Source of the DNA: a candidate division FCPU426 bacterium
Lineage (GTDB): Bacteria > Oederibacteriota > JAAXVQ01 > JAUVAV01
DNA: 64,000 nucleotides
Assembly: GCA_040756875.1 (NCBI GenBank)
Contig: JBFLYH010000002.1
Coordinates: 981,246-1,045,245, forward strand
Direction of reading: 5' to 3'
Part shown: positions 2,643 through 32,702 of the stretch, piece after piece
How positions within the stretch are numbered: the stretch's first letter is position 1
Layout: each line of letters starts with the position of its first letter
The notes under the pieces: model-generated
What the model saw: only the letters and a program-made list of their open reading frames with translations
What the model was told of the DNA's origin: nothing
The model's database searches: none
Made by a program: the position numbers and the translations under genes

Positions 2643-4436
<1,794 letters not shown>

Positions 4437-4449
4437 GCAAGAGGACAGC

Positions 4450-9489: not shown

Positions 9490-9495
9490 CGTCCC

Positions 9496-10743: not shown

Positions 10744-10848
10744 CCACCGCCCCCTCCCCGTTCCGGGAAAAACAGCAAAACCATCCTCCCTTCGCCCCGT
10801 TGGATACCGGCGGAAGACGTCCTTACCAGCCTATCCGTAAAAAGGTTT

Positions 10849-10882
10849 GTTCGGATTCGGATTTGCCCTTCCGAATCCGAAC
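10849..10882. repeat. 13-bp perfect inverted repeat (hairpin) in the icd-mdh intergenic region
   Basis: GTTCGGATTCGGA (10849-10861), 8-nt loop, TCCGAATCCGAAC (10870-10882); flanked by an imperfect outer IR (10801-10813 / 10921-10935). Confidence 0.6.
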
Positions 10883-11023
10883 ATGGAATGCCAGAGGCCT
10901 TAAGGCGGATTCCGACGGTATCCTGCGGAGCGGTGAATGGGCTTTGTTGTTCGAATCTGGTTTTTTTTAGAAAGTATGTTAAGATAGCCCCGGAATTTAT
11001 TCGTTCCTCCGAAGGAGCTCCTT

Positions 11024-11977: not shown

Positions 11978-12081
11978 CGCGGGAGCGGGCGGGCGAAAGC
12001 GGAAAATAGGGAACAGACCGCCGTTCGGGTTGCCGGAGGGTCCGGCGCCGGTTCCGGAGTGGCCAAGAGAGGGGTGGGCGC

Positions 12082-12924
12082 ATGCGGGAAATCACCGTTG
12101 AATCCGTGCAGAAGGCCGTGGTCACGGCCTTGAAAGAGCTCCATTACCAGTTGCGGCCCGATTTACGGACGCGCATCCAATCCGCGATCGAACAGGAAGC
12201 GTCGCCCCTGGGACGTCAGTCCCTGGAGCTGCTTCTGGACAACGCCAAAATGGCTTCGGCCGGCGTGCAGCCCTTGTGCCAGGACACGGGGCTGACCACG
12301 ATCTTCGTGGAACTGGGGCAGGAAGTGCAAATCACCGGGGGCTCCCTCGAAGCCGCGCTGCAGGAAGGCGTGCGCCAGGGGTCCGCGGAACTGCGCCTGC
12401 GGCACTCCGTGGCCGGGCATCCCCTGAAGCGCGTCAACACCGGTGACAACACGCCGGCGTTTATTCATTACGAGATCGTGCCGGGCAAAGGCTGCAAGCT
12501 GCGGGTGCTGGCCAAGGGCGGCGGCAGCGAGAATATGAGCGCCCTGGCCATGCTGCTGCCTTCGGCCGGCATGGAAGGCGTCACGGATTTCGTGCTCAAC
12601 CATGTCCGCCTGCACGGCGCCATGGCCTGCCCGCCCCTGATTGTCGGCGTGGGCGTGGGCGGCAGCTTCGAGACCGCGCCGCTGCTGGCCAAAAAAGCGC
12701 TGCTGCGCCCGGTGGGCCAGCCCTCGTCCGATCCGGAGACCGCGGCGTGGGAGGATAAGTTGCTCGGCTGGATCAACCGCCTGGGCATTGGCCCGCAGGG
12801 GTGGGGCGGCACGACCACCGCCCTGGCCGTGGCCATCGAGACCGCGCCCTGCCACATCGCGTCCCTGCCCGCGGCCGTGAACATCGAATGCCACAGCCAC
12901 CGCATGGCGGAGGTGATGCTATGA
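12082..12924 (+). CDS. fumarate hydratase class I (Fe-S hydro-lyase), alpha/N-terminal catalytic subunit
   Basis: 280-aa ORF with cysteine motifs typical of the two-subunit class I fumarase/tartrate dehydratase family. Confidence 0.75.
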   Translation: MREITVESVQKAVVTALKELHYQLRPDLRTRIQSAIEQEASPLGRQSLELLLDNAKMASAGVQPLCQDTGLTTIFVELGQEVQITGGSLEAALQEGVRQGSAELRLRHSVAGHPLKRVNTGDNTPAFIHYEIVPGKGCKLRVLAKGGGSENMSALAMLLPSAGMEGVTDFVLNHVRLHGAMACPPLIVGVGVGGSFETAPLLAKKALLRPVGQPSSDPETAAWEDKLLGWINRLGIGPQGWGGTTTALAVAIETAPCHIASLPAAVNIECHSHRMAEVML

Positions 12925-13481
12925 GCGGCAAATGGTTGCAGTTGCCCCTGGATCCCAAGGCGGTGGAAGAGCTGGCCGTGGGCCAGTGGGTGAATTTGTC
13001 CGGGCCGCTCATCACGGCGCGCGACGCGGCCTTGAAGCGCATCTATAACCTGCTGCTGGAATACAAAAAGCCGCCGGTGGACCTGCAAAACCAGCTGGTG
13101 TATTTCGTCGGCCCCACGCCCGCGGCGCCGGGCGAGCAGATCGGTTCCGCCGGGCCCACCACCAGCCGCCGCATGGAGCCGTACCTTCCCTCCCTGTTGT
13201 CGGCCGGCGTCAAAGCCGTCATGGGGAAGGGTCCGCTGTCCGAGGGCATGGTCGCCGAGTTCCACCGGCGCGGCGCGATCTATCTGGCCGCGGCCGGCGG
13301 CGCGGGCGCGTACTACGGCTCCAAAGTGCGCGGCGCCATGGTCATGGCCTACGAAGAACTGGGGCCCGAAGCCGTCTACAGCCTGATGGTGGACAATTTT
13401 CCGGCGGTCGTGGCCATTGACCTCAAGGGCGGCAATCTGTTCGAGCAGGGGCCGAAAGCCTATTTCAGGGAGCAAGCATGA
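12921..13481 (+). CDS. fumarate hydratase class I, beta subunit
   Basis: ATGA-coupled to the alpha subunit; 186 aa beginning MSGKWLQLPL. Confidence 0.75.
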   Translation: MSGKWLQLPLDPKAVEELAVGQWVNLSGPLITARDAALKRIYNLLLEYKKPPVDLQNQLVYFVGPTPAAPGEQIGSAGPTTSRRMEPYLPSLLSAGVKAVMGKGPLSEGMVAEFHRRGAIYLAAAGGAGAYYGSKVRGAMVMAYEELGPEAVYSLMVDNFPAVVAIDLKGGNLFEQGPKAYFREQA

Positions 13482-15436
13482 AGCGAAAGACCGTCTCCAG
13501 CCGCGCGCCGCTGACCGCGGCTGAAAAAATCCTGGCCGCCCACGGCATGGCCGCGGGGAGCCGGCCCGGCGATGAAATCGCCCTGCGCATTGACCAGACC
13601 CTGACCCAGGACGCGACCGGTACCCTGGCCTGGCTGCAGTTCGAGGCGCTGGGCCTGCCGCGGGTCAAGACCCGCCTGTCGGTTTCCTACGTGGACCACA
13701 ATACCCTGCAAACCGGATTCGAGAACGCCGACGACCACGCCTATCTGCAGAGCGCCGCCCGAAAATTCGGCGCGGTGTTTTCGCGGCCCGGCAACGGCAT
13801 CTGCCACCAGGTGCACCTGGAACGGTTCGGCAAGCCCTGGGCCACGCTGCTCGGCTCGGATTCCCACACGCCCACGGCCGGCGGCCTGGGCTCGCTTGCC
13901 ATCGGCGCGGGCGGGCTGGATGTGGCCGCGGCCATGGCCGGCGCGCCGTTCTACCTGCTCCATCCGAAGATCCTCAACGTGCTGCTCACCGGCCGGCTGG
14001 CCAGGCGCGTTTCGGCCAAGGACGTGATATTGGAAGTGCTGCGCCGGATTTCCGTCAAGGGCGGGGTGGGCAAGATCCTCGAATACTCCGGTCCGGGCGC
14101 GGCCTCGCTCTCCGTGCCCGAACGGGCCACGATCACGAACATGGGCGCCGAGACCGGCGCCACCACCAGCCTGTTTCCCGCGGACGCCACCACCCGCGCT
14201 TTTCTGGCTTACCAGGGCCGGGCCAGGGAGTACCGGCCTTTGGCCGCGGACCCGGGCGCGGTTTATTCCGGCGGCGAGCTGGCGATCGACCTGTCGCGCC
14301 TGGAGCCGCTGGCCGCCAAACCCCACTCGCCGGACGCGGTCGTGCCGGTCCGCGAGCTGGCCGGGCTCAAACCCCAGCAGGTGGTCATCGGCTCCTGCAC
14401 CAACTCCTCCCTGGCCGACCTGGCGACCGTGGCCGGGCTGCTGGCCGGCCGGCGCGTCCACCCCGACGTGTCGCTGGTGATCACGCCCGGCTCCCAGCAG
14501 GTGCTCAACGCCCTGGCGGAGAACGGCGCGCTCGCGGCCCTGATCACGGCCGGCGCGCGGGTCATGGAGCCCGCCTGCGGCGCCTGCATCGGCATGGGCC
14601 AGGCGCCGGCCACGGGCGCGGTGACCCTGCGCACCTTCAATCGCAATTTCAAGGGCCGGTCCGGCACGCCGGACGCCCAGGTGTACCTGGTTTCAGCCGA
14701 GACCGCGGCCGCGGCCGCGGTCATGGGATCGGTCGTGGATCCGCGCCGCTTTCAGGCCGCCAAGACCTTCCGCCTGCCGAAACGCGCCGAGGCCTCGGAC
14801 AGCCTGCTCATCCGCCCCGCGGCCCGGAAGCAGGCGGTTGAGATCGTGCGGGGGCCCAACATCAAGCCCCTGCCGCAGTTCGCGCCGCTCGCGGACGCGG
14901 ACCAGGGCCAGGTCCTGGCCAAGTTCGGGGACCACGTGACCACGGACGACATCATGCCCGCGGGCGCCAAGCTTCTGCCCCTGCGCTCCAACATCCCGGC
15001 CCTGGCGCAGCACGTCTTCTCGCGTCTGGACGCGGACTTCAGCCGACGCAGCCAGGAGCAGGGGGGCGGCTACGTGGTGGGTGGCGACAACTACGGCCAG
15101 GGCTCCTCGCGGGAGCACGCGGCCCTGGCGCCGCGCTACCTCGGCGTGCGCGCCGTGCTGGTCAAGTCCTTCGCGCGCATCCACCTGGCCAACCTCATCA
15201 ATTTCGGCATCGTGCCCCTGACCTTCCGCGATCCGGCGGATTACGGCCGGGTGGAGGCCGGGCACACGCTGAGCCTGCCGGACCTCAAGGCCGACCTCGC
15301 GGCCGGCCGGGCCGTGCGCGTGAAAAACCTCACCACGGGCGCGGCCTGGGAGATGGAGTGCACCCTGACGCCCCGCCAGCGCGAGCTGGTGCTGGCGGGC
15401 GGGACGCTCAATTATCTGAAACGGCATTTTGCCTGA
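13478..15436 (+). CDS. aconitate hydratase (aconitase family)
   Basis: ATGA-coupled; 652 aa with aconitase blocks (GSDSHT, GSCTNSS, swivel domain). Confidence 0.8.
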   Translation: MKRKTVSSRAPLTAAEKILAAHGMAAGSRPGDEIALRIDQTLTQDATGTLAWLQFEALGLPRVKTRLSVSYVDHNTLQTGFENADDHAYLQSAARKFGAVFSRPGNGICHQVHLERFGKPWATLLGSDSHTPTAGGLGSLAIGAGGLDVAAAMAGAPFYLLHPKILNVLLTGRLARRVSAKDVILEVLRRISVKGGVGKILEYSGPGAASLSVPERATITNMGAETGATTSLFPADATTRAFLAYQGRAREYRPLAADPGAVYSGGELAIDLSRLEPLAAKPHSPDAVVPVRELAGLKPQQVVIGSCTNSSLADLATVAGLLAGRRVHPDVSLVITPGSQQVLNALAENGALAALITAGARVMEPACGACIGMGQAPATGAVTLRTFNRNFKGRSGTPDAQVYLVSAETAAAAAVMGSVVDPRRFQAAKTFRLPKRAEASDSLLIRPAARKQAVEIVRGPNIKPLPQFAPLADADQGQVLAKFGDHVTTDDIMPAGAKLLPLRSNIPALAQHVFSRLDADFSRRSQEQGGGYVVGGDNYGQGSSREHAALAPRYLGVRAVLVKSFARIHLANLINFGIVPLTFRDPADYGRVEAGHTLSLPDLKADLAAGRAVRVKNLTTGAAWEMECTLTPRQRELVLAGGTLNYLKRHFA

Positions 15437-15458
15437 TTCCACCAAGGAGGTTAGGATC

Positions 15459-15998
15459 ATGCGCCAATGGATCGTCCTGGGCACGGCGGCGCTGCTGCTG
15501 GCCGGCGGCTGCGCCAGCGTGCCCGAAATCAAAGGAAAGGAAGCGAAGACCGAAACCATGACCGAAAGCACACCTGCCACCGAAGCTGTTATTCAGACCA
15601 ACAAAGGCGAGATCGTGTTCAAGTTCTACCCTGAAGACGCACCCAAGACCGTGGAGAATTTCGTCAAGCTGGCGCGCAAGGGCTTTTACGACGGGCTGAC
15701 TTTCCACCGCGTGGTGCCGAACTTCGTCATCCAGGGCGGAGATCCCAAGGGCGACGGCACCGGCGGGCCCGGTTACACCGTTCCCGCGGAATTCAACAGC
15801 CGCTCGCACCTGACGGGCACGGTGGCCATGGCGCGGGCCTTGGATCCCAACTCCGCGGGCAGCCAGTTCTACATCTGCCTCGCCCGTCAGCCCGGCCTCG
15901 ACGGACAGTACACGGTCTTCGGCCAGGTCACCTCGGGCATGGACGTGGTGCAATCGATCCGCGTGGGCGACAAAATGCTCAAGGTCACGGTGCGCTGA
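15459..15998 (+). CDS. peptidyl-prolyl cis-trans isomerase, cyclophilin type (probable lipoprotein)
   Basis: Start at ATG 15459 after RBS AGGAGG; signal peptide with lipobox-like LAGGC; cyclophilin motifs FHRVVPNFVIQGGD. Confidence 0.8.
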   Translation: MRQWIVLGTAALLLAGGCASVPEIKGKEAKTETMTESTPATEAVIQTNKGEIVFKFYPEDAPKTVENFVKLARKGFYDGLTFHRVVPNFVIQGGDPKGDGTGGPGYTVPAEFNSRSHLTGTVAMARALDPNSAGSQFYICLARQPGLDGQYTVFGQVTSGMDVVQSIRVGDKMLKVTVR

Positions 15999-16055
15999 AG
16001 CGGATAAAAAAATTTGCGGAACGCAAGAAAACATTTCTCCTTTGACGCGCGAATG

Positions 16056-16064
16056 TGCTATAAA
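16056..16064 (+). promoter_or_regulatory. extended -10-like element TGcTATAAA upstream of the micro-ORF
   Basis: TG at 16056-16057 then TATAAA 16059-16064; no convincing -35. Confidence 0.3.
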
Positions 16065-16102
16065 AGAATTAACACATGCACGTCGAAAAAGGAGGTGACA
16101 GC

Positions 16103-16153
16103 ATGGCGGTGAAGAAGGCGAAGAAAAAGGCCACGAAGAAGAAAAAGAAATAA
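16103..16153 (+). CDS. 16-codon lysine-rich micro-ORF (MAVKKAKKKATKKKKK)
   Basis: Strong SD AAAGGAGGTGA 5-8 nt upstream of ATG 16103; stop TAA 16151-16153; followed by an intrinsic terminator. Confidence 0.3.
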   Translation: MAVKKAKKKATKKKKK

Positions 16154-16194
16154 GTTGATTCGATTTCGTGTGCATTGATACGCTTTGGTTTGCG

Positions 16195-16229
16195 AACCGG
16201 AGGGGGCCCTGCTCCCTCCGGTTTTTTAT
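16195..16229 (+). terminator. Rho-independent terminator (GC stem + T6)
   Basis: CCGGAGGGGG / CCCTCCGG stem then TTTTTTATT at 16221-16229. Confidence 0.7.
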
Positions 16230-16279: not shown

Positions 16280-16308
16280 TTGACATTCATGCGGGTCAGG
16301 CGTATCTT
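16280..16308 (+). promoter_or_regulatory. sigma70-like promoter TTGACA-17-TATCTT of the pyr operon
   Basis: -35 at 16280-16285, 17-nt spacer, -10 at 16303-16308. Confidence 0.55.
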
Positions 16309-16344
16309 CTTAAACGGTCGCAATCCTTTAAACTGGTTCCGTGA

Positions 16345-17930
<1,586 letters not shown>

Positions 17931-17947
<17 letters not shown>

Positions 17948-19244
17948 AGGCGGACGCTTGCTCGACCCGGCCAGCCGGCACGACGCGCCGGCGGACCTAT
18001 GGCTGGAAAACGGACGCGTGGCGGAGGTCACTCCGCCGGGCGCCCGCAAACCCCAGGCGCAGGACGAGGTCTGGGAGGCCGGCGGCCTGGCCGTGGCGCC
18101 CGGGCTGGTGGACGCGCACGTGCACCTGCGCGAGCCGGGCGCGGAATACAAGGAAACCATCGCCTCGGGCACGCGCGCAGCCGCCGCGGGCGGCGTGACG
18201 AGCCTAGCCTGCATGCCCAACACCACCCCGCCCATCGACAATCTGGCCATGGTGGAGCTGGTGCTGTCCAAAGCCAAAAGCCAGGGCGCGGTGAACGTCT
18301 TTCCCGTGGCCTGCATCACCCAGCGCCGGGAAGGGAAGCAGCTCACCGAAATGGGCGAACTCAAGGCCGCGGGCGTGGTGGCCGTGTCCGACGACGGCGA
18401 GCCCGTGGAATCGCCGACGCTCATGCGCAGCGCCCTGCAGTACGCCGGCATGCTCGACCTGCTGGTCATCAACCACGCGGAAGACAAGTCCCTCGCCGGC
18501 AAGGGCGTGGCCCACGCCGGGTTCATGGCCTGCAAGCTGGGCCTGGCGGGCGTGCCCCGCTCGGCCCTGGAGGTCATGATCAGCCGCGACCTGCTTCTGG
18601 CCGAGGAGACGGGCAGCCGCATCCACATCCCGCACGTGTCCACGGCCGGGGCCGTGCGCCTGATCCGCGAAGCCAAGGCGCGCGGCGTGCGCGTGACGGC
18701 CGAGACCGCTCCCCACTACCTCGCGCTCACGGACGAGTGCCTCGCGGGCTACGACACCAACGTGCGCGTCAACCCGCCGATCGCCGAGGCCGCGGACCAG
18801 GCGGCGCTTATCGACGGGCTGGTCGACGGCACCCTGGACGCGATCGCCACGGACCATGCCCCGCACTCGCGCCGCGAAAAGGAAATGGAGTTCGCCCTGG
18901 CCGCGCCGGGCATCTGCGGCCTGGAAACTTCGCTCTCCCTCTGTCTCACGGTCCTCGTGGCCTCGGGCCGGATGCCGCTGCTCGAATTGATCGACCGCAT
19001 GTCGCTGCGGCCGGCCCGCCTGCTGGGCGTGCCCAAGGGCACGCTCGCGGCCGGAGCGGACGCGGACCTGGTGCTGTTCGACCCGGACGCGGACCGCACG
19101 GTCCAGGCGTCGGAGTTCCACAGCCAGTCGGACAACACGCCCTTCGACCAGTGGCGCGTGAAAGGCCGCGTGGCCGCCACCTTCGTGGCCGGAGAACCGG
19201 TGTATATCGCTCCTCAAGACCAAGCCAGGCGGAAGCCATCGTGA
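17931..19244 (+). CDS. pyrC: dihydroorotase
   Basis: Start at ATG 17931 (RBS AGGAGG); metal ligands [10 protein letters not shown] and DHAPH. Confidence 0.85.
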
Positions 19245-20005
19245 ACTGCCGCGTGCTGCGCGTCCGGCGGGCGGGTTCCTATGCCCGCCTTTGGCTGGAG
19301 GCGCCGGACATCGCCCGCCGGGCCCGGCCCGGGCAGTTCGTCATGGTCCGGCCCCGGGGCGCGGACGCGCCGTTTTGGCGCCGGCCGTTTTCCCTGTGCT
19401 CGGCCGACGGCCGGCGCAGCGTGGAACTGCTGATCAAAGCCGTGGGTCCGGGCTCCCGCCTGCTCGCCGCCTCGCGTCCGGGGGACCTCCTCGACGTCAC
19501 GGGCCCCTTGGGCACGGGGTTCAGCCTGGACGTCACGGGGCCTGTGCTCCTGGTGGGCGGAGGCTTCGGCATCGCGCCTCTGCGATTTTTAGCCGAGTGC
19601 CTGCGCCGCCGCCGCATTCCCTGCGAGGTGTTCCTGGGCGGTCGATGCCGCGAAGATCTGCTGCTGCAAAGCGAGCTTAAACTCGCGGCCGCGGGCGTGG
19701 CCTGCACCACCGAAGACGGCAGTTTTGGCCGGCGCGGCCGCGTGACCTTGCTTCTGGCCGAGCGCCTGGCCGGCAGCCGGAAACCGGCGCGCATCGCGGC
19801 CGCCGGGCCCGAAGCCATGCTCGCGGTCGTGGCGGACCTGGCGGAAAAGCACGGCGTGGCAGCCGAAGTTTCGCTGGAGACGGTCATGGCCTGCGGCCTG
19901 GGCGTGTGCAACGGCTGCGTGCGCCGCGTCAACGGGCAATACCAGCGCGTGTGCGCCGACGGCCCGGTCTTCGACGCCGCGGCCGTGGATTGGAGCCAAG
20001 CATGA
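19241..20005 (+). CDS. pyrK: dihydroorotate dehydrogenase electron-transfer subunit
   Basis: GTG start overlapping pyrC stop (GTGA); FAD/NAD-binding fold and C-terminal Cys cluster CGLGVCNGC. Confidence 0.75.
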   Translation: MNCRVLRVRRAGSYARLWLEAPDIARRARPGQFVMVRPRGADAPFWRRPFSLCSADGRRSVELLIKAVGPGSRLLAASRPGDLLDVTGPLGTGFSLDVTGPVLLVGGGFGIAPLRFLAECLRRRRIPCEVFLGGRCREDLLLQSELKLAAAGVACTTEDGSFGRRGRVTLLLAERLAGSRKPARIAAAGPEAMLAVVADLAEKHGVAAEVSLETVMACGLGVCNGCVRRVNGQYQRVCADGPVFDAAAVDWSQA

Positions 20006-20931
20006 GCCCGCGTGCCGCAGCACCTTCCCTGTCCTGCACGGTGGGCCGCGTGCGCCTGGCCGCGCCGGTCCTGCTCGCTTCTGGCACCTGCGGCTACGGC
20101 CTGGAGCTGGCCGGGCACGTGGATTTCCCGGCTCTGGGCGGCGTGGTCCTGAAAAGCCTGACCCAGGAGCCGCGCGCTGGCAATCCCATGCCCCGCGTGG
20201 CCGAATGCAGCCAGGGCATGCTCAATGCGATCGGCCTGGCCAATGTGGGCGTGGAGGCGTTTTGCCGCGAGAAGTGGCCCAAGGTCAAAGCGTTGCCTTG
20301 CGCCGTGCTGGCCAACGTGGCTGGCGCTTCGCAGGCCGAGTACGTGGCCGTGGCGCGGCGCCTGGACCGGCTGGACGGGCTCGCGGGCCTGGAGCTGAAC
20401 GTGTCCTGCCCCAATGTCAGCCACGGCGGGATGGAATTCGGCCGCGAGCCCCGCGTGCTGGAACGGCTGGTGGCCGCGGTGCGCAAAGCGACGAAGCGTC
20501 CGCTGTGGGTGAAGCTCACGCCCAACGTGGCGGACATCGCGCCCCTGGCCCGGGCGGCCGAAGCCGCAGGCGCGGACGCAATCACGGTCATCAACACCCT
20601 GCGCGGCCTGCGCATGGACCTCAAGCAACAGCGGCCTGTGCTGGGCAATGTGACGGGCGGGCTCTCGGGCCCGGCCATCATGCCCGTGGCCCTTTTTCAC
20701 GTCTACCGCGCGGCCGGAGCGGTGAAGATCCCCGTGGTGGGCTGCGGCGGCATCGAGACCGCGGAGGACGCGCTCGAATTCATCCTGGCCGGCGCCAGCG
20801 CGGTGCAGGTCGGGACCGCGACCTTCCGCCGGCCGCGGGCCGCGGAGCTGATCGCGGCCGGGCTGCGGCGCCAGCTGCAGGCCCGGGGCCTGCGCAGCCT
20901 CAAGCCCCTGATCGGAGCCGGAAGGATATGA
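20002..20931 (+). CDS. pyrD: dihydroorotate dehydrogenase catalytic subunit (class 1B)
   Basis: ATGA-coupled; TIM-barrel DHODH motifs (NAIGLANVG, LELNVSCPN, GGI). Confidence 0.85.
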   Translation: MSPRAAAPSLSCTVGRVRLAAPVLLASGTCGYGLELAGHVDFPALGGVVLKSLTQEPRAGNPMPRVAECSQGMLNAIGLANVGVEAFCREKWPKVKALPCAVLANVAGASQAEYVAVARRLDRLDGLAGLELNVSCPNVSHGGMEFGREPRVLERLVAAVRKATKRPLWVKLTPNVADIAPLARAAEAAGADAITVINTLRGLRMDLKQQRPVLGNVTGGLSGPAIMPVALFHVYRAAGAVKIPVVGCGGIETAEDALEFILAGASAVQVGTATFRRPRAAELIAAGLRRQLQARGLRSLKPLIGAGRI

Positions 20932-21527
20932 ACTGGCAGGCAGCGGTGATCCAGGCGGTGTCGTGGGACGCGGCCGGGCTCCGCCTGATCAACCAGGGCG
21001 CCTATTGGCGTCCGCTCGCGGATCTGACTTACTGGGTGGCGCGCGACCAGGTCATTCTGGGCGTGCTCGGCGGCGCGGTCGCGGCCTACATCCTGTACGC
21101 GGGCCTGCGCCGCGCGTTGTGGGTGTCCGCCTGGAGCGCCGCGGCCGTAATGCTCACGCAATTGATCCACAACAGCTGGTTCAAGCTTTTTTTCAACCGC
21201 CCCCGGCCGTTTCTCCGCCAGGAGGGCGTGCGGCTGTGCGTGGCTTTGAACGATTTATCGCAGGTTTCGCTGTCCTTCCCGTCCACTCATTCGGCCAGCG
21301 CCGCGGCCCTGGCCGTGGTAATCGCCGGTTTGGATCCGGCGCTCAAGTGGCCGGCCATCGGGTTCGCCCTGCTGATCGGCCTGGGCACCGTGTATTCCGG
21401 CGGGCATTATCCGGCGGACGTGCTCGCGGGGTATGCGGCCGGTGGCGGCGTGGGCTGGCTGTTGCTGCGTCTACGGCCGTTCCTGTCCTGGGCGGACCCT
21501 TGCAGCGCAGGCCAGGGCAGGCCATGA
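20928..21527 (+). CDS. PAP2-family phosphatase (membrane)
   Basis: ATGA-coupled to pyrD; PAP2 motifs SFPSTHS and SGGHYPADV; multiple TM helices. Confidence 0.7.
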   Translation: MNWQAAVIQAVSWDAAGLRLINQGAYWRPLADLTYWVARDQVILGVLGGAVAAYILYAGLRRALWVSAWSAAAVMLTQLIHNSWFKLFFNRPRPFLRQEGVRLCVALNDLSQVSLSFPSTHSASAAALAVVIAGLDPALKWPAIGFALLIGLGTVYSGGHYPADVLAGYAAGGGVGWLLLRLRPFLSWADPCSAGQGRP

Positions 21528-22624
21528 GCAGGGGAGCGGGCATCCGGATGCTGCTGGCCGCGGCCGCGTTTCTGGCCGCAGGCCCGGCGGCAAGGGCGCA
21601 GGACGGGAACACTCTGTCCGCGGCCTCCATACCCGTGCTGTGCTATCATCGCTTCGGCGGGCACAACGCCCAGGACGCTTATTCGGTCACGCCCGAGGAA
21701 TTCGCGGCGCAACTGGAAATGATCCAGGCCGAAGGCATGACCCCCGTTTCCCTGAGCAGCCTGGCCGCAGGGCTCAAGGGCGCGAGCCGACTGCCGGCCA
21801 AACCCGTGGTGATCACGGTGGACGACGGGTACCGGGACTTCAACAAACACGCCCGGCCCCTGCTCGCGGCCAAGGGCTATGCGGCCGCCTTGTTCGTCTA
21901 CCCCGCGTTCGTGGGCACCAAGCACGGCTTTTCGCGGCAGGACCTGGCCGAGCTGCAGGCCGCGGGCTTCGAGATCGGCTCGCACTCCGCGACGCACGCC
22001 TATCTGACGCGCCGTCCCGCGGGAGAAACGCCGGAAGCCCGGCAGGCGCGCCTGCAGGCCGAACTGGCGGGTTCGCGGGAAAAACTCAGGGAGTGGTCAG
22101 GCGGCGAAGTGCTGGCCCTGTCCTATCCCTACGGCCTGTGGGACCAGGAAACGGCGGAGGCGGCGCAGGCCGCGGGGCATGAGTTGATGTTCACCGTGGA
22201 TCCCGGGCCGAACGACGCGGCGACGCCCCGCTATGCCTTGAAGCGCACCATGATCCTGCGCGGCCTCACGCCCGGCATTTTCCTCAGCATCCTGCGGGAG
22301 GCGCCCCTGCGCGTCGGCGGCTGGGAGCCGGCGCTCGGCGCGCGGGTGGCCGGGCCGCTCCTCAGGCTGACCTTCAGCCTGGACCCGGAGCAGAGCCAAC
22401 GCCTTAAGCCGAACACCCTGGCCGTGACGCGCCAGAACCAGGCGCTGCCCCTGCGCTTCGACGCAGCGCGCGGCCGCTACGAAATCACGCTGCCCAAACC
22501 GTGGCAGCGCGGCACGGATTTGCTGATCCTGACCGCGCGGGACCAAGGCAACCGCCGCCTGCGCGACAGCCGCCTGGTCATCGTGGACCCGGCAATGGAA
22601 GCGAAAGGACTCACAACCCCATGA
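21524..22624 (+). CDS. polysaccharide deacetylase family protein (NodB-homology domain), secreted
   Basis: ATGA-coupled; signal peptide; NodB motifs ITVDDGYRD and GSHSATHAYL. Confidence 0.7.
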   Translation: MSRGAGIRMLLAAAAFLAAGPAARAQDGNTLSAASIPVLCYHRFGGHNAQDAYSVTPEEFAAQLEMIQAEGMTPVSLSSLAAGLKGASRLPAKPVVITVDDGYRDFNKHARPLLAAKGYAAALFVYPAFVGTKHGFSRQDLAELQAAGFEIGSHSATHAYLTRRPAGETPEARQARLQAELAGSREKLREWSGGEVLALSYPYGLWDQETAEAAQAAGHELMFTVDPGPNDAATPRYALKRTMILRGLTPGIFLSILREAPLRVGGWEPALGARVAGPLLRLTFSLDPEQSQRLKPNTLAVTRQNQALPLRFDAARGRYEITLPKPWQRGTDLLILTARDQGNRRLRDSRLVIVDPAMEAKGLTTP

Positions 22625-23352
22625 CCGTCAAACCCAAAGACCGCCTGTTCATCGCCCTGGATGTGGATGATTTGAAGGCCGCGGACCATCTTATGAGCCG
22701 CATGCAGGGCGTGGTGTCACAGTACAAGCTGGGCGCGCAGCTGCTCACGGCCGCCGGACCGGAGGCCGTGATGCACGTGCGCCGCCGCGGCTTCGGCGTC
22801 TTTTACGACGCCAAGTTCCACGACATCCCGCGCACGGTCGGCGCGTCCGTGGCCGCGGCCTGCCGCATCGGCGCCACCATCGTCAACGTGCACGCCGGCG
22901 GCGGCAAGGACATGATGGCCGCCGCAGCCCAGGCGGCCCGCGACGTGGCGCACAAACTGCGCCAGCCCCGCACCCTGGTGCTGGGCGTGACCGTGCTGAC
23001 GTCGCTCACCCAGGCCAACCTGACCCGGGAGCTGGGCGTGCGGCGCCGCCTGCAGTCGCAGGTGGTGCAGCTCGCGCGCCTGGCGAAAGCCTCGGGATTG
23101 GACGGCGTGGTCGCCAGCCCGCAGGAGATCGCGGCCGTGCGCCGGGCCTGCGGCCGGGATTTCGTGATCCTCACACCGGGCATCCGGCCGGCCGGGGCCA
23201 GCCTCAATGACCAGAAACGCACCCTGACCCCGGGCCAGGCCATGGCCGCGGGCGCCGATTACCTGGTGGTCGGCCGTCCGGTGTACGAGGCGCGCGACCC
23301 GCTGGCCGTGGTGCGGTCCATTTTCAGCGAAATGGAGGAGTTCATGCGATGA
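22621..23352 (+). CDS. pyrF: orotidine-5'-phosphate decarboxylase
   Basis: ATGA-coupled; FIALDVDD and DAKFHDIP motifs. Confidence 0.85.
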   Translation: MTVKPKDRLFIALDVDDLKAADHLMSRMQGVVSQYKLGAQLLTAAGPEAVMHVRRRGFGVFYDAKFHDIPRTVGASVAAACRIGATIVNVHAGGGKDMMAAAAQAARDVAHKLRQPRTLVLGVTVLTSLTQANLTRELGVRRRLQSQVVQLARLAKASGLDGVVASPQEIAAVRRACGRDFVILTPGIRPAGASLNDQKRTLTPGQAMAAGADYLVVGRPVYEARDPLAVVRSIFSEMEEFMR

Positions 23353-23942
23353 CACCCGCGCAAGTGCAAACCCTGTTCGAAGAGTCCGGCGCCCTGCTCA
23401 GCGGGCACTTCCAGCTGACCTCGGGCAACCATTCCAACCGCTACCTGCAGTGCGCCCTGGTCACCCAGCATCCGGGGCATGCCGCGAGCCTGGCCGACGC
23501 CCTGGCCGGACGGTTCAAGGACCAGGACGTGGACGTGGTCCTGGGCCCGGCCGTGGGCGGCATCGTGCTGGCCCAGGAAGTGGCGCAAGCCCTGTACCGC
23601 CAGGGTCGCCGGCAGGTGCGCGCCATTTTTTGCGAACGCGTGGACGGCCGCATGGCCCTGCGCCGCGGGTTTTCGCTCTCGTCCGGGGAACGGGTGCTGG
23701 CCGTGGAGGACGTGGTGACCACCGGCGGTTCGGTGCAGGAAGCCGTGGCCCTGGCCCAGGCCGCGGGCTGCACGGTGGTCGGCGTGGGCTGCCTGGTGGA
23801 CCGCAGCTCCGCGCCGCCGCAACTCGGCGCGCCCCTGGTCTCGCTGCTCAAGGTGAACGCCGATTTGTTTCCGCCGGACAACTGCCCCTTGTGCCGACAG
23901 GGCCTGCCGGCCATCAAGCCCGGCAGCCGGGGATTAAAATGA
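23349..23942 (+). CDS. pyrE: orotate phosphoribosyltransferase
   Basis: ATGA-coupled; PRPP-binding motif VLAVEDVVTTGGS. Confidence 0.85.
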   Translation: MTPAQVQTLFEESGALLSGHFQLTSGNHSNRYLQCALVTQHPGHAASLADALAGRFKDQDVDVVLGPAVGGIVLAQEVAQALYRQGRRQVRAIFCERVDGRMALRRGFSLSSGERVLAVEDVVTTGGSVQEAVALAQAAGCTVVGVGCLVDRSSAPPQLGAPLVSLLKVNADLFPPDNCPLCRQGLPAIKPGSRGLK

Positions 23943-23944: not shown

Positions 23945-24070
23945 GGGATGGGTCGAAGATTCACCCTAGGGCGGACGGCGGTTTGCTCTGCAAACCGCCT
24001 CGGATCGAAAAATCCCCTTGCCAATGCGGTTTTTCTCAACGCCGCCTGCGGGTGAATCTTCGACCCGTGT
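23945..24070. repeat. Palindromic intergenic element E2, homologous to E1
   Basis: 17-bp perfect IR GGGTCGAAGATTCACCC (23950-23966) / GGGTGAATCTTCGACCC (24050-24066); inner hairpin GGCGGTTTG/CAAACCGCC (23977-23999); shares blocks GGGATGG, TTCACCC, GACGGCGG, CCGCCTCGG, CGAAAAA, GTTTTTC, CAACGCC with E1. Confidence 0.7.
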
Positions 24071-26130: not shown

Positions 26131-27456
26131 GTGCCTGAATCTTTCTCCGCCAGACAATTAATCGGTTGCGCCCTGGCTATCGGGCTGCTGCTTACAGGCT
26201 GCCGCGGCGCCACCCAGGCCCCGGCCTGGTCCCAGCGCTCCCTGATCGCCGGCCCTGAAATCCTCGTCCGTCTCTGGCGCAAAACCCCCTTCACGCAAGT
26301 GCAGCTCTCCTGGGACGGCACGCCGCTGCTGGCGGTGGATGCCAACGGAGAAATCATCCCCCTGCCGCAGGTCAACCGGCTCTATTTCTACCAGCGCGGC
26401 GAGCAGGTGGCCCTGGCATTCAAAGCCGGCCGCAAGGCGGCCCGCGAAGCCCAGGCGTACTCCTCGCTGGTGCTGCGGGTCCCGGGATCCGAGGTCAAGG
26501 CGTTCACGGTGTTGATCCCGGAATACGGCCGGCGGCGCAACTACGGCGCCCAAGCCGTGAGCCTGTCCGTGAAATACGGGCACTTGGCGCTGATCAACCA
26601 TCTGCCGCTGGAAATGTACCTGGCGCGCGTGCTGCCCGAGGAAATGGATCCGGAGCATTTCACGCTGGAGGCGCTCAAAGCCCAGGCCGTGGTGGCGCGC
26701 ACCTGGTCCCTGACCAATCTCAACCGGCACGCCCGCTATGGGTATCATTTTTGCGACGGGCCCCACTGCCAGGCCTACCGCGGCCGCAAGCGGGTGTCCG
26801 GCCGGGCCGAGGACGCGGTGAAGATGACCCTGGGCGAAGTGGTGCTCTCCGGCGGCGAGCCGGCCGAGGCGTTTTACCACAGCACCTGCGGGGGCAACAC
26901 GGCGTTCGTGGAAGACGTATGGCCCGGGGCCCGGCTTCCGTATCTGAGGCGCGTCGAGGACCGCTTCCGCCCCGGTCAGCGCGCCTACTGCGCCCATTCC
27001 CCCTATTCACGCTGGACGCTGTGGACTTCGCTCCGGCACGTGGAGCGGGTATTGAAACGCCGCCAGGCGATCGCCGCCGAAACCAATCTGCTGGACGTCA
27101 AAGTGGACGCGGTCAACCGTTCCGGCCGCGTGCTCAGGATTTGGCTGGCCACAGACCGCGGCGAATTGACACTGGGCGGGGAGTCCTTTCGCGCGTGGCT
27201 GAACGAGGAGTTCGGGCGAAAGCTCCTGAGCACGTTTTATTCCATCAGGGTGGAGGACGGGCAGTTTAAGCTGGAGGGGAAAGGCCTGGGACACGGGGTC
27301 GGCATGTGCCAATGGGGCGCCCGGGGCATGGCCCAGCTCGGTTTTTCCTACCAGGACATCCTACAGCATTACTTTCCGGGGACCACGATCGGCCGGTTCG
27401 AGGGGGCGGCCGTGGAACCCGGGGCGACCACGGTGAATTCGCACGCCGGGAAGTAG
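26131..27456 (+). CDS. SpoIID/LytB-domain protein (putative peptidoglycan-acting lipoprotein)
   Basis: GTG start at 26131; lipobox LLTGC; SpoIID/LytB blocks HSTCGGNTAFVEDVW and GHGVGMCQWGARGMA. Confidence 0.7.
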   Translation: MPESFSARQLIGCALAIGLLLTGCRGATQAPAWSQRSLIAGPEILVRLWRKTPFTQVQLSWDGTPLLAVDANGEIIPLPQVNRLYFYQRGEQVALAFKAGRKAAREAQAYSSLVLRVPGSEVKAFTVLIPEYGRRRNYGAQAVSLSVKYGHLALINHLPLEMYLARVLPEEMDPEHFTLEALKAQAVVARTWSLTNLNRHARYGYHFCDGPHCQAYRGRKRVSGRAEDAVKMTLGEVVLSGGEPAEAFYHSTCGGNTAFVEDVWPGARLPYLRRVEDRFRPGQRAYCAHSPYSRWTLWTSLRHVERVLKRRQAIAAETNLLDVKVDAVNRSGRVLRIWLATDRGELTLGGESFRAWLNEEFGRKLLSTFYSIRVEDGQFKLEGKGLGHGVGMCQWGARGMAQLGFSYQDILQHYFPGTTIGRFEGAAVEPGATTVNSHAGK

Positions 27457-29621
27457 CGGGGCGTGCGGGTTACCTGCAGGGGCGAACGCGAACGGCGGGC
27501 CGATCCCATGGGCGCCACTTTCAGGTTCACCTGATACCGGCCGGCCGGAAGGCCCGGCGGCACTGCCAGCTGATAAATTTCCTCCAGATTGCCGGGCGCG
27601 TAGGCCCACGAGGGCGGGGGCCAGTAACCCAGGCGCCGGACCGCTTTCCAGGGCCGGCGCAGGGTTCCGGAAACGGACGGCTGGATCCAAAAATACACCA
27701 CCCATTGTTCGCCGTTGGGCGCGGGCAGAAATTGCCAGCGCAAGGAAACAGTCAGCACGGAATCCAAACCCTCCGAAGCGGCCGGCGGCTGCACGCCGGC
27801 TGCCACCAGGCGCATGGGTCCTGCCGTCTCCAGCGGAGACGGGGTTTTGGCCGGGCCCAGGCCTGATTCGCCCCAGACCGGGCCGCGGGCCACGGGAAAC
27901 GGTTCAACGTGATAGGCTGAAAACCGCCGGTTGGTTCCGTCCGGGCCGTTCACTAAATAGCCTCCATCCTCCATTGCCAATAATCTGAAGCTTTGCAGAA
28001 AGTATTCCCAAGCCGGAGAGGACAGTTTGGGCCTGGCCAAGACCACCACCGGTTTTCCCGCCGACACCTGTTGGCCGAGTTCCCGGTTCCAGGCGGCCCA
28101 TTTGCGCCAGGCCTTGCCTTTTTCCGCAGCGCGGGCGCCGGCGGCAGCCGGCCAGGGTTTGGACAGAGGTTGCAGCAGCAAATCCGGACGCACGCCTTTG
28201 CGGGTTTGCAGCAACAAAGGCAGCAGCCCCTGCTGCATGTCCGGAAAAACCACGATGGCGGATTCGGGCAGGCTTTTCATCCCGCGGCCGACTTCGTCCA
28301 CGTCGGAAATCCGGGGGCCGGATGCCGCTTCCGGCCATCCCTGCAGCAACATCAGCACCGGGGCCAGGGCCACCAGGCTCATGCCGATCCAGGTGGGCTT
28401 GAGACGCATGCCCAGGCTCAAGCGGTGGTCGCCCTGCCCCAGCACGGTCAGGACATACTGCAGGGCTTCCAAACCCAGCCAGGGGCCGGCCATGGCCAGC
28501 CCCAGCATCACGTCCTCGCTTTGCCGCAGGGGCAGCAGCAGCAAACCCGCCAGGGAACAGACGATCAGAAGCGCCAGGAACTGGCGTCCCGGCAGGTTGA
28601 TTTCCTCGGTTACGCGCAGCGGGGTTTTGAGAAACAACCGGCGCAGGTTGGCGGCCAGCCCCAGGCCGGCCAAGGCCCAGGAAAAAACGGGAAAATGCCG
28701 CAGCCAGACGGACCAGACCGTCGACCAAGGTCCCTGCGGGGCAGCAGGGGGGGACCCGTGCGACTGGAGCTGGGTCAGGAAGCCCTGCCAGGCGTGAAGG
28801 TTCAGGGCCGGGCCGAGCGGCTGGAAATGATCCGTGTTGATGAAGACGTGATCCGCAGTCAAGCGCAGGGGCAGGTACAGATAGGGCAGCAAGGCGCCAA
28901 CCAGGGCCGCGGCCACGGCCTGGCCGTACATCCAGGCCTGCACGCGTTGGCGGGGGAGCCCCAGCACCAACCCCAGGAGCAGGGCCGAGGCTGCCCAAGG
29001 AAGCAAGCCCAGGGATTGGGAAGCCGTGGCGCCCAATAAAGCGGCCCAGGCCGTGAGGCGCCAGACGGACACCGGGTGACGGCCGGGCGTGAGCAGACCC
29101 AGCGTTAAGTACACGCCAACAGCCAACAGCCAAAGGTGGAAGGACATCGGGCCGATGCGCAAGCCGGCCTGCCAGACCGGAAAAAACCAAAAACAGGACA
29201 AAGCCGTGGCCAGGGAGACGAAGGGCGGAAACAACAGGCGGCGCGCGATCAAATAAACGAACAGGCAGGTTCCGGAGCCGAACAGCAGGCTGAGCAGGCG
29301 GTACCGCCACAGCTCTTCGCCCAAGGGCAGCACGACGGACAGGAACTTGGCGCTGAGCAGATACAACGGATAGCCCGGAAAACGGACCACGCCCAGCGTG
29401 CTCGCGCCCAGCACCCATTCGGCCTGGCCGCCGGCCCACGAGCTTGTGGCCAGCCAGGGCCAGGAAGTCAGCAAGGGCAGGAAAAAAGCCAGCAGGCCGA
29501 ACCAGCCGTCGGGTTTAAGGAAGAAAATCGTCTGATCCACCCGTTCCGGGCGAGAGGGTGCGTACACGAGCAGCAAGCCTCCGCGGAGCCTGAGCCGGTG
29601 ACGGCGTACGCTCCAGAGCAT
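27369..29621 (-). CDS. DUF2723-like polytopic membrane protein (GT-C-fold glycosyltransferase-like)
   Basis: Only supported minus-strand gene; 750 aa, N-terminal half strongly hydrophobic with LGVVRFPGYPL motif; start uncertain (alternative GTG at 29567 with GGAGG SD). Confidence 0.6.
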   Translation of the reverse strand: MLWSVRRHRLRLRGGLLLVYAPSRPERVDQTIFFLKPDGWFGLLAFFLPLLTSWPWLATSSWAGGQAEWVLGASTLGVVRFPGYPLYLLSAKFLSVVLPLGEELWRYRLLSLLFGSGTCLFVYLIARRLLFPPFVSLATALSCFWFFPVWQAGLRIGPMSFHLWLLAVGVYLTLGLLTPGRHPVSVWRLTAWAALLGATASQSLGLLPWAASALLLGLVLGLPRQRVQAWMYGQAVAAALVGALLPYLYLPLRLTADHVFINTDHFQPLGPALNLHAWQGFLTQLQSHGSPPAAPQGPWSTVWSVWLRHFPVFSWALAGLGLAANLRRLFLKTPLRVTEEINLPGRQFLALLIVCSLAGLLLLPLRQSEDVMLGLAMAGPWLGLEALQYVLTVLGQGDHRLSLGMRLKPTWIGMSLVALAPVLMLLQGWPEAASGPRISDVDEVGRGMKSLPESAIVVFPDMQQGLLPLLLQTRKGVRPDLLLQPLSKPWPAAAGARAAEKGKAWRKWAAWNRELGQQVSAGKPVVVLARPKLSSPAWEYFLQSFRLLAMEDGGYLVNGPDGTNRRFSAYHVEPFPVARGPVWGESGLGPAKTPSPLETAGPMRLVAAGVQPPAASEGLDSVLTVSLRWQFLPAPNGEQWVVYFWIQPSVSGTLRRPWKAVRRLGYWPPPSWAYAPGNLEEIYQLAVPPGLPAGRYQVNLKVAPMGSARRSRSPLQVTRTPRYFPACEFTVVAPGSTAAPSNRPIVVPGK

Positions 29622-32618: not shown

Positions 32619-32702
32619 TCGCTGTGTATTGCCCCGGTGAGGAGCTCTCCGGGGTGACGTTGCCGGAACGACAAATTGAGTGAATATCGAAGGAGGCTCG
32701 GC

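Follow-up and report, generated by a model that had tools for sequence, protein, structure and literature searches.

Genes for a predicted PAP2-family phosphatase and a predicted exported CE4 deacetylase lie between pyrD and pyrF in an FCPU426 bacterium and accompany pyrF-pyrE in its relatives

Why would two genes for envelope-type enzymes be housed in an operon for pyrimidine biosynthesis? This question arises from a stretch of 64,000 nucleotides of a candidate division FCPU426 bacterium (assembly GCA_040756875.1, contig JBFLYH010000002.1), hereafter called the window, in which a gene for a membrane protein of the PAP2 family and a gene for a predicted exported deacetylase of the NodB/CE4 type, referred to below as PAP2 and CE4, are found between pyrD and pyrF. 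An earlier examination of the letters alone, the sequence-only reading, had singled out this pair, had described ATGA start-stop overlaps joining it to its neighbours, and had considered the arrangement to be atypical and possibly a means of coupling the supply of uridine diphosphate (UDP)-sugars or pyrimidines to envelope processing. The identity of the two genes, the overlaps and the atypical character are all upheld by the present analysis, and the coupling is still speculation. What the comparison of relatives adds is that the conserved core consists of PAP2-CE4-pyrF-pyrE and is older than the nine-gene operon of the window.

On the forward strand, positions 16450-23942 form one gapless string of nine genes in the order pyrR-pyrB-pyrC-pyrK-pyrD-PAP2-CE4-pyrF-pyrE, as read from the DNA and from Pfam and NCBIfam scans of the open reading frames (ORFs). 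The pair fills exactly 20928-22624, which opens with the PAP2 start codon and closes with the CE4 stop codon: PAP2 (20928-21527) encodes a predicted integral membrane lipid-phosphate phosphatase of 199 amino acids matched by PF01569, and CE4 (21524-22624) encodes a predicted exported de-N-acetylase of 366 amino acids matched by PF01522. Upstream stand pyrR (16450-17019), a regulator of the uracil phosphoribosyltransferase type with a phosphoribosyl pyrophosphate motif in its ORF and orthologues matched by Pfam Pribosyltran/UPRTase; pyrB for aspartate carbamoyltransferase (17003-17947; NCBIfam NF002032, 415 bits for a cutoff of 263); pyrC for dihydroorotase (17931-19244; TIGR00857, 417 bits for a cutoff of 279); pyrK for the electron-transfer subunit of dihydroorotate dehydrogenase B (19241-20005; Pfam DHODB_Fe-S_bind, NAD_binding_1 and FAD_binding_6); and pyrD for the type 1B catalytic subunit of that enzyme (20002-20931; PF01180, E 2.4e-74; NF005574, 390 bits for a cutoff of 269). 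Downstream are pyrF for orotidine monophosphate (OMP) decarboxylase (22621-23352; PF00215, E 7e-54; NF001273, 256 bits for a cutoff of 193) and pyrE for an orotate phosphoribosyltransferase of the pyrE_Therm type (23349-23942; TIGR01367, 203 bits for a cutoff of 150). For PAP2 and pyrF, the encoded proteins have identical counterparts at NCBI in a metagenome-assembled genome labelled candidate division FCPU426 bacterium. Neither carA nor carB is among the operon genes, and the two envelope-type genes break a gene content otherwise given over to the synthesis of uridine monophosphate (UMP).

The overlaps are plain in the DNA: the pyrD stop TGA (20929-20931) overlaps the PAP2 ATG at 20928, giving ATGA at 20928-20931; the PAP2 stop (21525-21527) overlaps the CE4 ATG at 21524, giving ATGA at 21524-21527; and the CE4 stop (22622-22624) overlaps the pyrF ATG at 22621, giving ATGA at 22621-22624. 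They are nevertheless not peculiar to the pair, a 4-nucleotide overlap being present at all six junctions from pyrC to pyrE (GTGA for pyrC/pyrK, ATGA for pyrK/pyrD and pyrF/pyrE as well), while pyrR/pyrB and pyrB/pyrC each overlap by 17 nucleotides. A consensus scan detected zero promoter-like or terminator-like sites in 20928-22624. With a G+C content of 0.68-0.69 and a G+C content at third codon positions (GC3) of 0.85-0.86, PAP2 and CE4 match the pyr genes, GC3 being uniform along the operon, so that neither a recent insertion nor an artefact is indicated; the G+C content is about 62% over the whole window and about 69% in the PAP2/CE4/pyr region. The nine genes would thus be transcribed as one mRNA, with PAP2 and CE4 presumably coupled in translation through the ATGA overlaps.

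Is this arrangement shared by relatives? In homologue searches, the score falls abruptly after some 31 orthologues of either protein, and many of the PAP2 and CE4 orthologues lie on shared contigs. When one genome per GTDB species was scanned with the CE4 profile, 13 loci with a full-length orthologue were obtained, labelled by their submitters (from whom all phylum labels are taken) as FCPU426, Goldiibacteriota or Firestonebacteria; the order pyrD-PAP2-CE4-pyrF-pyrE occurs in all 13 species representatives, with pyrR-B-C-K ahead of it wherever the contig extends that far. Searches based on PAP2 or CE4 cannot recover members of the clade devoid of both genes; a search with pyrF, which delimits a discrete clade at no less than 64% identity, provides a reverse test of three loci, all of which, on contigs absent from the PAP2 and CE4 searches, carry the pair upstream of pyrF. 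It had been proposed that a location elsewhere in relatives, together with internal promoters or terminators separating the pair from the pyr genes, would refute the sequence-only reading; what is found is exactly the same site in the relatives, none of these signals inside the pair by consensus scan, and a single PyrR attenuator, upstream of pyrR. In nearest outgroups, by contrast, where pyrF sequences of other lineages are 50-52% identical, the order is either pyrK-pyrD-pyrF-pyrE, with pyrD abutting pyrF, or pyrF-pyrE-pyrD-pyrK, without insert. Literature searches on the pyr operon together with PAP2, or on pyrF/pyrE together with polysaccharide deacetylase, returned nothing relevant.

The junctions of the pair are close in these relatives, with a 4-nucleotide overlap between pyrD and PAP2 in almost every species-representative locus, and the PAP2/CE4 and CE4/pyrF distances lie in most loci between -4 and some tens of nucleotides. 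The exceptions are PAP2/CE4 gaps of about 100-200 nucleotides, where the choice of start codon is uncertain, and CE4/pyrF gaps of 218 nucleotides in the fusion locus L084 and 548 nucleotides in L014, whose CE4 is cut short by a stop codon within the frame. In three protein clusters (P0018, P0021, and P0022), PAP2 and CE4 are fused in frame, the fused gene standing between pyrD and pyrF. These fusions retain the former signal-peptide hydrophobic segment as an additional membrane helix (residues 190-208), which would place the CE4 domain on the same side of the membrane as the PAP2 active site. The same gene order recurs in independent assemblies from NCBI, ENA, JGI, and Logan, and percentage identities to the window proteins vary in step between PAP2 or CE4 and pyrF or pyrE (Spearman 0.73-0.81). 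Since the divergence of the pair follows that of pyrF and pyrE and GC3 is uniform, these data indicate that PAP2 and CE4 have probably been inherited vertically together with pyrF-pyrE; a recent horizontal insertion was rejected on the basis of the same GC3 match and co-divergence.

The linkage reaches beyond loci with pyrD. A distant PAP2 homologue (35% identity) is encoded in the order DUF2298-PAP2-CE4-pyrF-pyrE, without pyrD, and a metagenome scan with the PAP2 profile gave at least 15 further distinct contigs with PAP2-CE4-pyrF-pyrE. Metagenome PAP2 matches lacking CE4 or pyr neighbours were not retained as counter-examples, as they align only to the C-terminal catalytic half of the query and were treated as generic PAP2 proteins. 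The contigs with the block, which we term Goldbacteria-type, have a G+C content of 29-51%, a pyrF 39-46% identical to that of the window and no pyrD, and the gene immediately upstream of PAP2 encodes a protein of about 1,470-1,500 amino acids with an N-terminal PMT_2 and a C-terminal DUF2298 domain. PMT_2 proteins are GT-C glycosyltransferases that use polyprenyl-phosphate-sugar donors; for DUF2298, no functional description was found in the literature, nor was anything found there on the lipopolysaccharide (LPS) of Goldbacteria. By protein clustering, pyrE of the Goldbacteria-type contigs goes with NCBI proteins from metagenome-assembled genomes (MAGs) labelled Candidatus Goldbacteria/Goldiibacteriota. 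While NCBI treats FCPU426 and Goldbacteria as two candidate phyla, they form one phylum-level lineage by 16S (PMC7031533). One Goldbacteria-type contig (L086, 873-947) has an A-rich spacer upstream of PAP2 with four tandem GTCAAAA/GTAAAAA heptamers.

When the ORFs of 16 representative loci are clustered, all loci have in common pyrF, pyrE, and the PAP2/CE4 pair, and nothing else; the fusions make one cluster of PAP2 and CE4, to which one locus, L054, contributes CE4 only. The GT-C protein is common to ten of the 16 loci, the remaining flanking genes differ, and the junctions within the block are tight in most lineages. As only these genes are shared while the flanks vary, PAP2-CE4-pyrF-pyrE is the conserved core. 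The link is with pyrF-pyrE and not with the whole pyr operon, and in the FCPU426-type branch the core was attached behind pyrR-B-C-K-D.

What do the two proteins look like? For PAP2, the window protein matches PF01569 with an E-value of 5e-21 and 75.2 bits (cutoff 27.2), as do all 36 aligned members of the family. The best PDB match of the family profile is the Aquifex aeolicus LpxE structure 6ebu (E 4e-23), followed by Bacillus subtilis PgpB/YodM, and the AlphaFold2 model, with a mean predicted local distance difference test score (pLDDT) of 89.3, is all-helical with long helices of membrane type, its top Foldseek matches being again 6ebu (target-normalised TM-score 0.68) and 5jki. Since a Kyte-Doolittle scan under-calls the Ala/Gly-rich helices of this protein, the topology argument is founded on the model and on the homology with LpxE. 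LpxE, which faces the periplasm, removes the 1-phosphate of lipid A and acts as a phosphatase on undecaprenyl diphosphate (C55-PP) and phosphatidylglycerol phosphate (PGP) as well (PMC6581854), and hydrolysis of such substrates by PAP2 is predicted from this homology alone. The NCBIfam model of the undecaprenyl-diphosphatase SepP gives 33 bits for a cutoff of 250.

The active site departs from that of LpxE. Motif 1 (KX6RP) is present, with K86, R93, and P94 invariant in 34 sequences; motif 2 (PSGH) reads P118-S119-T120-H121, with Thr in place of Gly, and its P118, S119, and H121 are invariant in the family; and motif 3 keeps H160 and D164 in every member but has Gly153-Thr154 in the window instead of the Ser-Arg dyad. 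In this motif, His acts as the nucleophile and Asp as the charge relay. The third conserved residue, Arg, binds the phosphate, K73, R80, and R137 of LpxE holding the phosphate mimic in the sulfate-bound structure (PMC6581854). The position of R137 is Thr154 in the window protein and is occupied by Arg in none of the 34 family members, which have Thr, Ala, Ser, or Cys instead; the pattern SRX5HX3D is hence absent from the family, whereas the outgroup PAP2 proteins P0175 and P0198, like LpxE, retain the Arg. No published description of such an arginine-less motif 3 was found in the literature.

The CE4 protein matches PF01522 (Polysacc_deac_1) with an E-value of 1.4e-20 and 73.9 bits (cutoff 23.1), and consists of an N-terminus (MSRGAGIRMLLAAAAFLAAGPAARA/QD) resembling a Sec signal peptide, a catalytic domain at about residues 35-258 and a C-terminal Ig-like beta-sandwich of about 95 residues (about 264-355). 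Its AlphaFold2 model has a mean pLDDT of 89, and the C-terminal part matches CopC/PKD-like folds in Foldseek. For the catalytic domain, the closest PDB entries, by profile as well as by Foldseek, are BpsB/PgaB, IcaB, PplD, and BC0361/BA0330, with target-normalised TM-scores of 0.78-0.88 against the structures of the PgaB/IcaB/PplD subgroup. The window protein belongs to this subgroup of CE4, in which the catalytic His comes from the N-terminal motif and the Arg from a late position. In 31 orthologues, H42 (in PVLCYHRF), D100, D101, H154, H158, and R241 are invariant, D101, H154, and H158 making up the metal triad and D100 being the catalytic Asp (TxDDG and HSxxH motifs). These residues correspond one for one to H105, D167, D168, H223, H227, and R302 of PplD (PMC8807736), the pairing of R241 with R302 being assigned by position only. 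Because the catalytic residues are invariant and match those of PplD, CE4 is very probably an active, exported, metal-dependent de-N-acetylase of substrates of the N-acetylglucosamine (GlcNAc) type.

More specific names were considered and set aside. The PgaB model TIGR03938 scores 90 bits for a cutoff of 322 and is matched only in its N-terminal part, and the protein lacks the C-terminal poly-N-acetylglucosamine-binding domain of PgaB, with no pga genes nearby; IcaB, at 43 bits for an NCBIfam cutoff of 248 and without ica neighbours, was rejected as well. A PuuE-like cyclic amidohydrolase does not fit with the retained metal triad, the signal peptide and the closest matches, which are sugar de-N-acetylases, and an ArnD-like deformylase was discarded as no ArnD model of NCBIfam was matched at E<=0.001. 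Outside the clade, CE4 homologues are located among glycosyltransferase genes or beside a gene of the GlcNAc-1-phosphodiester glycosidase type: in Desulfarculus baarsii (L168), the homologue is flanked by GT4 and GT2 glycosyltransferase genes, and in L169 (6001-8058) a close homologue is followed by a NAGPA-type gene, of the GlcNAc-1-phosphodiester glycosidase family.

How would the pair be expressed? Ahead of pyrR, a consensus scan identifies a sigma-70-like promoter on the forward strand (16280-16308; TTGACA, 17 nucleotides, TATCTT; 10 of 12 matches), of which CTTGACA and TATTGT/TATCTT are kept at the equivalent position in the aligned leaders of relatives. It is followed, on the same strand, by a putative transcription attenuator (16319-16428) made of a PyrR-binding hairpin (16319-16365) and a G+C-rich terminator hairpin with a T-run (16390-16428). 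Such attenuation by PyrR, with the binding consensus ARUCCAGAGAGGYU, is described in Bacillus (PMC7430163). Three approaches served to look for the sites: an alignment of the leaders, a regular expression, and a covariance model derived from the hairpins of the aligned loci, the window among them. The alignment of eleven loci shows conservation of the promoter hexamers, of the hairpin ATCCTTTAAnCTrGyTCnGnGArrCyrGrAAGG and of a GCCTCCC...GGGAGGC hairpin with its T-run, and in several relatives the hairpin loop fits the published consensus, for example GUUCGGAGAGGCU. The two-helix hairpin is kept in all eleven relatives, with 99% of cells paired and two pairs changed on both sides, and sliding the 3' partners results in much poorer pairing in every shifted version. 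The Rfam model RF00515 gives 43.3 bits (E 0.0024) at the window leader, under the gathering score of 54, and at the gathering threshold no match was obtained in ten related loci. The covariance model scores 57.7 bits at the window leader, a circular figure since the window sequence was used to build it, the informative part being the absence of a second match in the 64 kb.

By regular expression and covariance model, every FCPU426-type locus has exactly one PyrR site; none was found within the operon, and L054 and the stretch ahead of PAP2 in Goldbacteria-type clusters gave none either. PAP2 and CE4 would therefore be expressed from a PyrR-attenuated transcript in this organism; as the Goldbacteria-type clusters are devoid of a PyrR site, such pyrimidine control of the pair is probably not ancestral to the PAP2-CE4-pyrF-pyrE linkage and would have been gained when the block joined the pyrR operon.

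Just 3' of pyrE, a strongly structured element (23948-24068, forward strand) consists of a 17-bp perfect inverted repeat, GGGTCGAAGATTCACCC at 23950-23966 and its complement at 24050-24066 (0.02 matches expected by chance), around a second hairpin, and has an RNA fold of -79 kcal/mol (z = -5.0). Its function could be to stabilise the operon transcript or to define its 3' end; as the element carries no T-run, a role as terminator is only putative.

Taken together, these data lead us to lean, with modest confidence, towards an account in which the pair is an envelope module carried on a shared transcript. UMP- or UTP-bound PyrR would stabilise the leader hairpin and thereby reduce read-through of the nine-gene mRNA, and the ATGA overlaps would couple the translation of PAP2, CE4, and pyrF, so that the envelope enzymes would be made in step with UMP synthesis. 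Both active sites would face the periplasm, as suggested by the LpxE-type topology of PAP2, the signal peptide of CE4 and the extra helix of the fusions, and would act on one shared membrane-anchored substrate. The in-frame fusion, taken as a Rosetta-stone signal, and the ancestral GT-C neighbour point to a polyprenyl-phosphate glycan or LPS/lipid A pathway, the likeliest substrate being a polyprenyl-(di)phosphate- or lipid A/LPS-linked GlcNAc glycan handled by the neighbouring GT-C transferases. On such a substrate, CE4 would convert GlcNAc into glucosamine, and PAP2 would remove a lipid phosphate, either in C55-PP recycling or in lipid A 1-dephosphorylation, both being activities of LpxE. 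As for the tie to pyrF-pyrE, the most economical reading would be that of a single transcription unit held since the common ancestor and costly to break; a benefit from keeping envelope glycan processing matched to the supply of UDP-sugars is possible but unproven.

Several observations weigh against this account. The loss of the phosphate-binding Arg of motif 3 throughout the family means that the phosphatase activity of PAP2 may be weak or altered, the window's Rfam match falls short of the gathering score, and the PyrR site is missing from Goldbacteria-type clusters. Moreover, the co-transcription of the pair, its translational coupling, its control by PyrR, its topology and its activity are all deduced from sequence. 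Two loci depart from the pattern. In L054, an FCPU426-labelled MAG, a related CE4 is present, but the 7 kb upstream of pyrF-pyrE are devoid of PAP2; its order (145-9346) is an O-antigen ligase-like gene, a GT9 heptosyltransferase gene, a sulfatase-family gene on the minus strand, two ORFs without family match, a sugar-1-phosphate nucleotidyltransferase gene, a PgaB-like CE4 gene (product 35% identical to that of the window) and pyrF-pyrE. An ORF of this locus was considered as a divergent PAP2 and rejected (best profile E-value 0.56, no Pfam or NCBIfam match). L092 presents PAP2-CE4 without pyrF downstream: it is 98-100% identical to L091 through the GT-C gene, PAP2, and CE4, becomes unrelated from about 140 nucleotides past the CE4 stop (about position 6700) and carries minus-strand ORFs in place of pyrF-pyrE, reflecting either a strain-level rearrangement or an assembly chimera.

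Another explanation, that of the sequence-only reading, possible but in our opinion rather unlikely, would make the tie itself adaptive: the pair would be kept with pyrF-pyrE in order to tune envelope remodelling to the pyrimidine (UDP-sugar) status, PyrR turning it into a read-out of UMP/UTP in the FCPU426 branch. In favour of this idea are the persistence of the linkage at 39-46% pyrF identity despite differing flanks, the tight junctions in most lineages and the fact that, on a change of neighbours, the pair stayed with pyrF-pyrE, the GT-C genes of the window being now 6-9 kb away; in the same line, the CE4 gene of L054 is again located right before pyrF, after the nucleotidyltransferase and LPS-type genes. 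However, the fall of a single rearrangement breakpoint on one side of the pair and not on the other is weak evidence, the Goldbacteria-type clusters do without a PyrR site, and no biochemical step joins the formation of OMP or UMP to a periplasmic phosphatase or deacetylase. Conservation within a single phylum-level clade can furthermore be explained by inheritance alone for genes sharing one transcript.

The altered motif 3 raises a different doubt, this time on chemistry, and it is compatible with either account of the linkage. PAP2 might be a phosphotransferase that shifts a phospho-headgroup from one lipid or glycan to another, in the manner of LpxT, Aur1, or sphingomyelin synthase and with CE4 readying the acceptor, or might have otherwise altered chemistry, a proposal that we find doubtful. 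The replacement of Ser-Arg by Gly/Phe and Thr/Ala/Ser/Cys in all 34 members, where outgroups keep SR, would fit with it; besides, all members also match PAP2_3, the Aur1-type family, 27 of 36 match PAP2_C, of the sphingomyelin-synthase type, and Aur1 is among the structural matches. Nevertheless, motif 1 (K86 and R93), which is missing from the transferase families, is invariant here, PAP2 proper scores 75 bits against 35 bits for the transferase-type models, and the closest solved relative is a hydrolase.

A role in pyrimidine salvage, analogous to that of pyrP in Bacillus, is very unlikely. PAP2 would in that case dephosphorylate external nucleotides or UDP-sugars, and CE4 would process material derived from UDP-GlcNAc, to yield uridine or uracil at times of induced de novo synthesis; the presence of the pair in a PyrR-controlled operon in the FCPU426 branch would be in keeping with this, as would the soluble class A PAP2 acid phosphatases found among the weaker structural matches. 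The top sequence and fold matches of PAP2 are, however, integral membrane lipid phosphatases (LpxE and PgpB) and not soluble nucleotide phosphatases, the affinities of CE4 are with de-N-acetylases of polysaccharides and linkage units, no transporter gene is part of the operon and the ancestral neighbour is a GT-C glycosyltransferase. Since both enzymes resemble lipid- and glycan-processing enzymes, a direct role in salvage is not expected.

Finally, that the pair stems from mis-called ORFs, an assembly chimera or a newly acquired cassette is hardly credible and already refuted by the comparative data, for although the L092 contig breaks after CE4 and the CE4 of L014 (6188-7260) is truncated by a single in-frame stop at the otherwise invariant Glu180 (which reflects either a nonsense mutation or an erroneous consensus for this MAG), nothing else supports it, and the domain matches are strong, the catalytic residues are invariant in 31-34 orthologues, the order is identical in independent assemblies and the base composition is that of the neighbours.

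Going further than the shared-transcript envelope module, one may conjecture, although we consider it improbable, that the pair forms with the PMT_2/DUF2298 GT-C protein an undescribed glycolipid-remodelling module tied to the last steps of UMP synthesis, switched by PyrR in FCPU426, where glycan de-N-acetylation and lipid dephosphorylation in the envelope would then answer to pyrimidine status, and in which the Arg-less PAP2 would perhaps carry out phosphotransfer.

The surroundings of the operon offer some observations of their own. Downstream, a GT-C membrane glycosyltransferase island (27369-50878) comprises five GT-C genes within 27 kb of the operon, as assigned by Pfam: a TMEM260-like gene (27369-29621, minus strand), a gene for a DUF2298 membrane protein with an inserted zinc ribbon (30213-32618, plus strand), a gene for a PMT_2 glycosyltransferase with an N-terminal zinc ribbon (32676-34691, plus strand), and two genes for large PMT_2+PA14 proteins (37938-41537 and 48137-50878). 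The DUF2298 and PMT_2 genes, 6-9 kb past pyrE, are separate here, whereas in Goldbacteria-type relatives one protein of about 1,480 amino acids beside PAP2 combines the two. The structure behind pyrE is followed by a gene for an Rce1-like protease, and an ORF of 2,259 amino acids at 51157-57936 has no Pfam match at E<=0.001. Upstream (2643-15998) are found Bat-like genes (for a VWA/TPR protein, BatD, and a TPR/SH3 protein), a run of tricarboxylic acid cycle genes (isocitrate dehydrogenase, malate dehydrogenase, fumarase, and aconitase) and a peptidyl-prolyl isomerase (PPIase) gene, the order aconitase-PPIase-pyr being kept in several FCPU426-type relatives. Between the PPIase gene and the pyr leader, a small stand-alone unit (16042-16224) consists of a promoter-like site (16042-16069), a strong Shine-Dalgarno sequence, a lysine-rich ORF of 16 codons (MAVKKAKKKATKKKKK, 16104-16154) and a strong intrinsic terminator (16194-16224).

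Uncultured phyla offer few clues to function, and a gene order still kept when protein identity has fallen to about 40% is one of them; here it links two envelope enzymes, one of them with an unusual active-site change, to pyrF-pyrE, and in one branch it also places them behind an RNA attenuator that senses nucleotides. Should the link be adaptive, the locus would be a simple case of envelope glycan processing set by the supply of nucleotide-sugar precursors, and would offer a way into the DUF2298/PMT_2 transferases, which are uncharacterised. As inherited architecture only, the link would be a clean synapomorphy for the FCPU426/Goldbacteria lineage and a caution for guilt-by-association annotation. 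Of the parts, the PyrR-attenuated pyr operon, the LpxE-like PAP2 protein and the PplD/PgaB-like CE4 enzyme are of known kinds; what is new is that they are joined to pyrF-pyrE and kept so throughout a phylum-level lineage, that PAP2 and CE4 are fused in frame in some relatives, and that the PAP2 motif has no arginine.

In comparison with known systems, other pyr operons reportedly hold non-pyr ORFs, such as that for the membrane protein Rv1382 between pyrC and carA in M. tuberculosis and the so-called bbc between pyrB and pyrC in Thermus, but the proteins and positions differ from those of the window pair, and neither case is said to involve an envelope-enzyme pair, a fusion or a linkage conserved outside the full operon. 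Modules for aminosugars of lipid A/LPS (ArnT/ArnD in E. coli, FlmK/NaxD/LpxF in Francisella) are said to pair a PAP2 protein with a GT-C transferase and with either a deacetylase or a deformylase, a lead only, and the Goldbacteria-type cluster would resemble them in its PMT_2/ArnT-like GT-C protein, its sugar de-N-acylase and its LpxE-like PAP2. ArnD and NaxD act on the cytoplasmic side, and NaxD is not a CE4 enzyme, in contrast with the window CE4 and its signal peptide; no GT2 gene for a polyprenyl-phosphate-sugar synthase is seen in the Goldbacteria-type cluster, and we know of no lipid A aminosugar module linked to pyr genes.

At the level of the single proteins, PAP2 shares with LpxE (6ebu) and PgpB/YodM (5jki) a size of about 190-200 amino acids, the all-helical fold, the KX6RP and HX3D motifs and an expected active site at the periplasmic face, but it is only 22-27% identical to them, has lost the motif-3 Arg throughout its family and has His in motif 2 (PSTH), where Aquifex LpxE has Asp. 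CE4 has in common with PplD (6dq3), the N-terminal domain of PgaB (3vus/4f9d), IcaB (4wcj), BpsB (5bu6), and BC0361/BA0330 the permuted CE4 motifs and the extracytoplasmic location, and differs from the PgaB/IcaB/PplD subgroup by its own C-terminal Ig-like domain, by the absence of pgaACD or icaAD neighbours and by its pairing or fusion with PAP2. The operon as a whole is most usefully set beside that of Bacillus subtilis (pyrR-pyrP-pyrB-pyrC-pyrAA-pyrAB-pyrK-pyrD-pyrF-pyrE; PMC7430163), with which it shares pyrR in first position, the order B-C-K-D-F-E, a type 1B dihydroorotate dehydrogenase with PyrK, one promoter, and a leader with a PyrR hairpin followed by an intrinsic terminator. Whereas the Bacillus system belongs to the Firmicutes, has three attenuators and includes pyrP and the carA/carB functions, the operon of the window is that of an uncultured, probably diderm phylum, has a single attenuator without pyrP or carA/carB, and carries PAP2 and CE4 between pyrD and pyrF.

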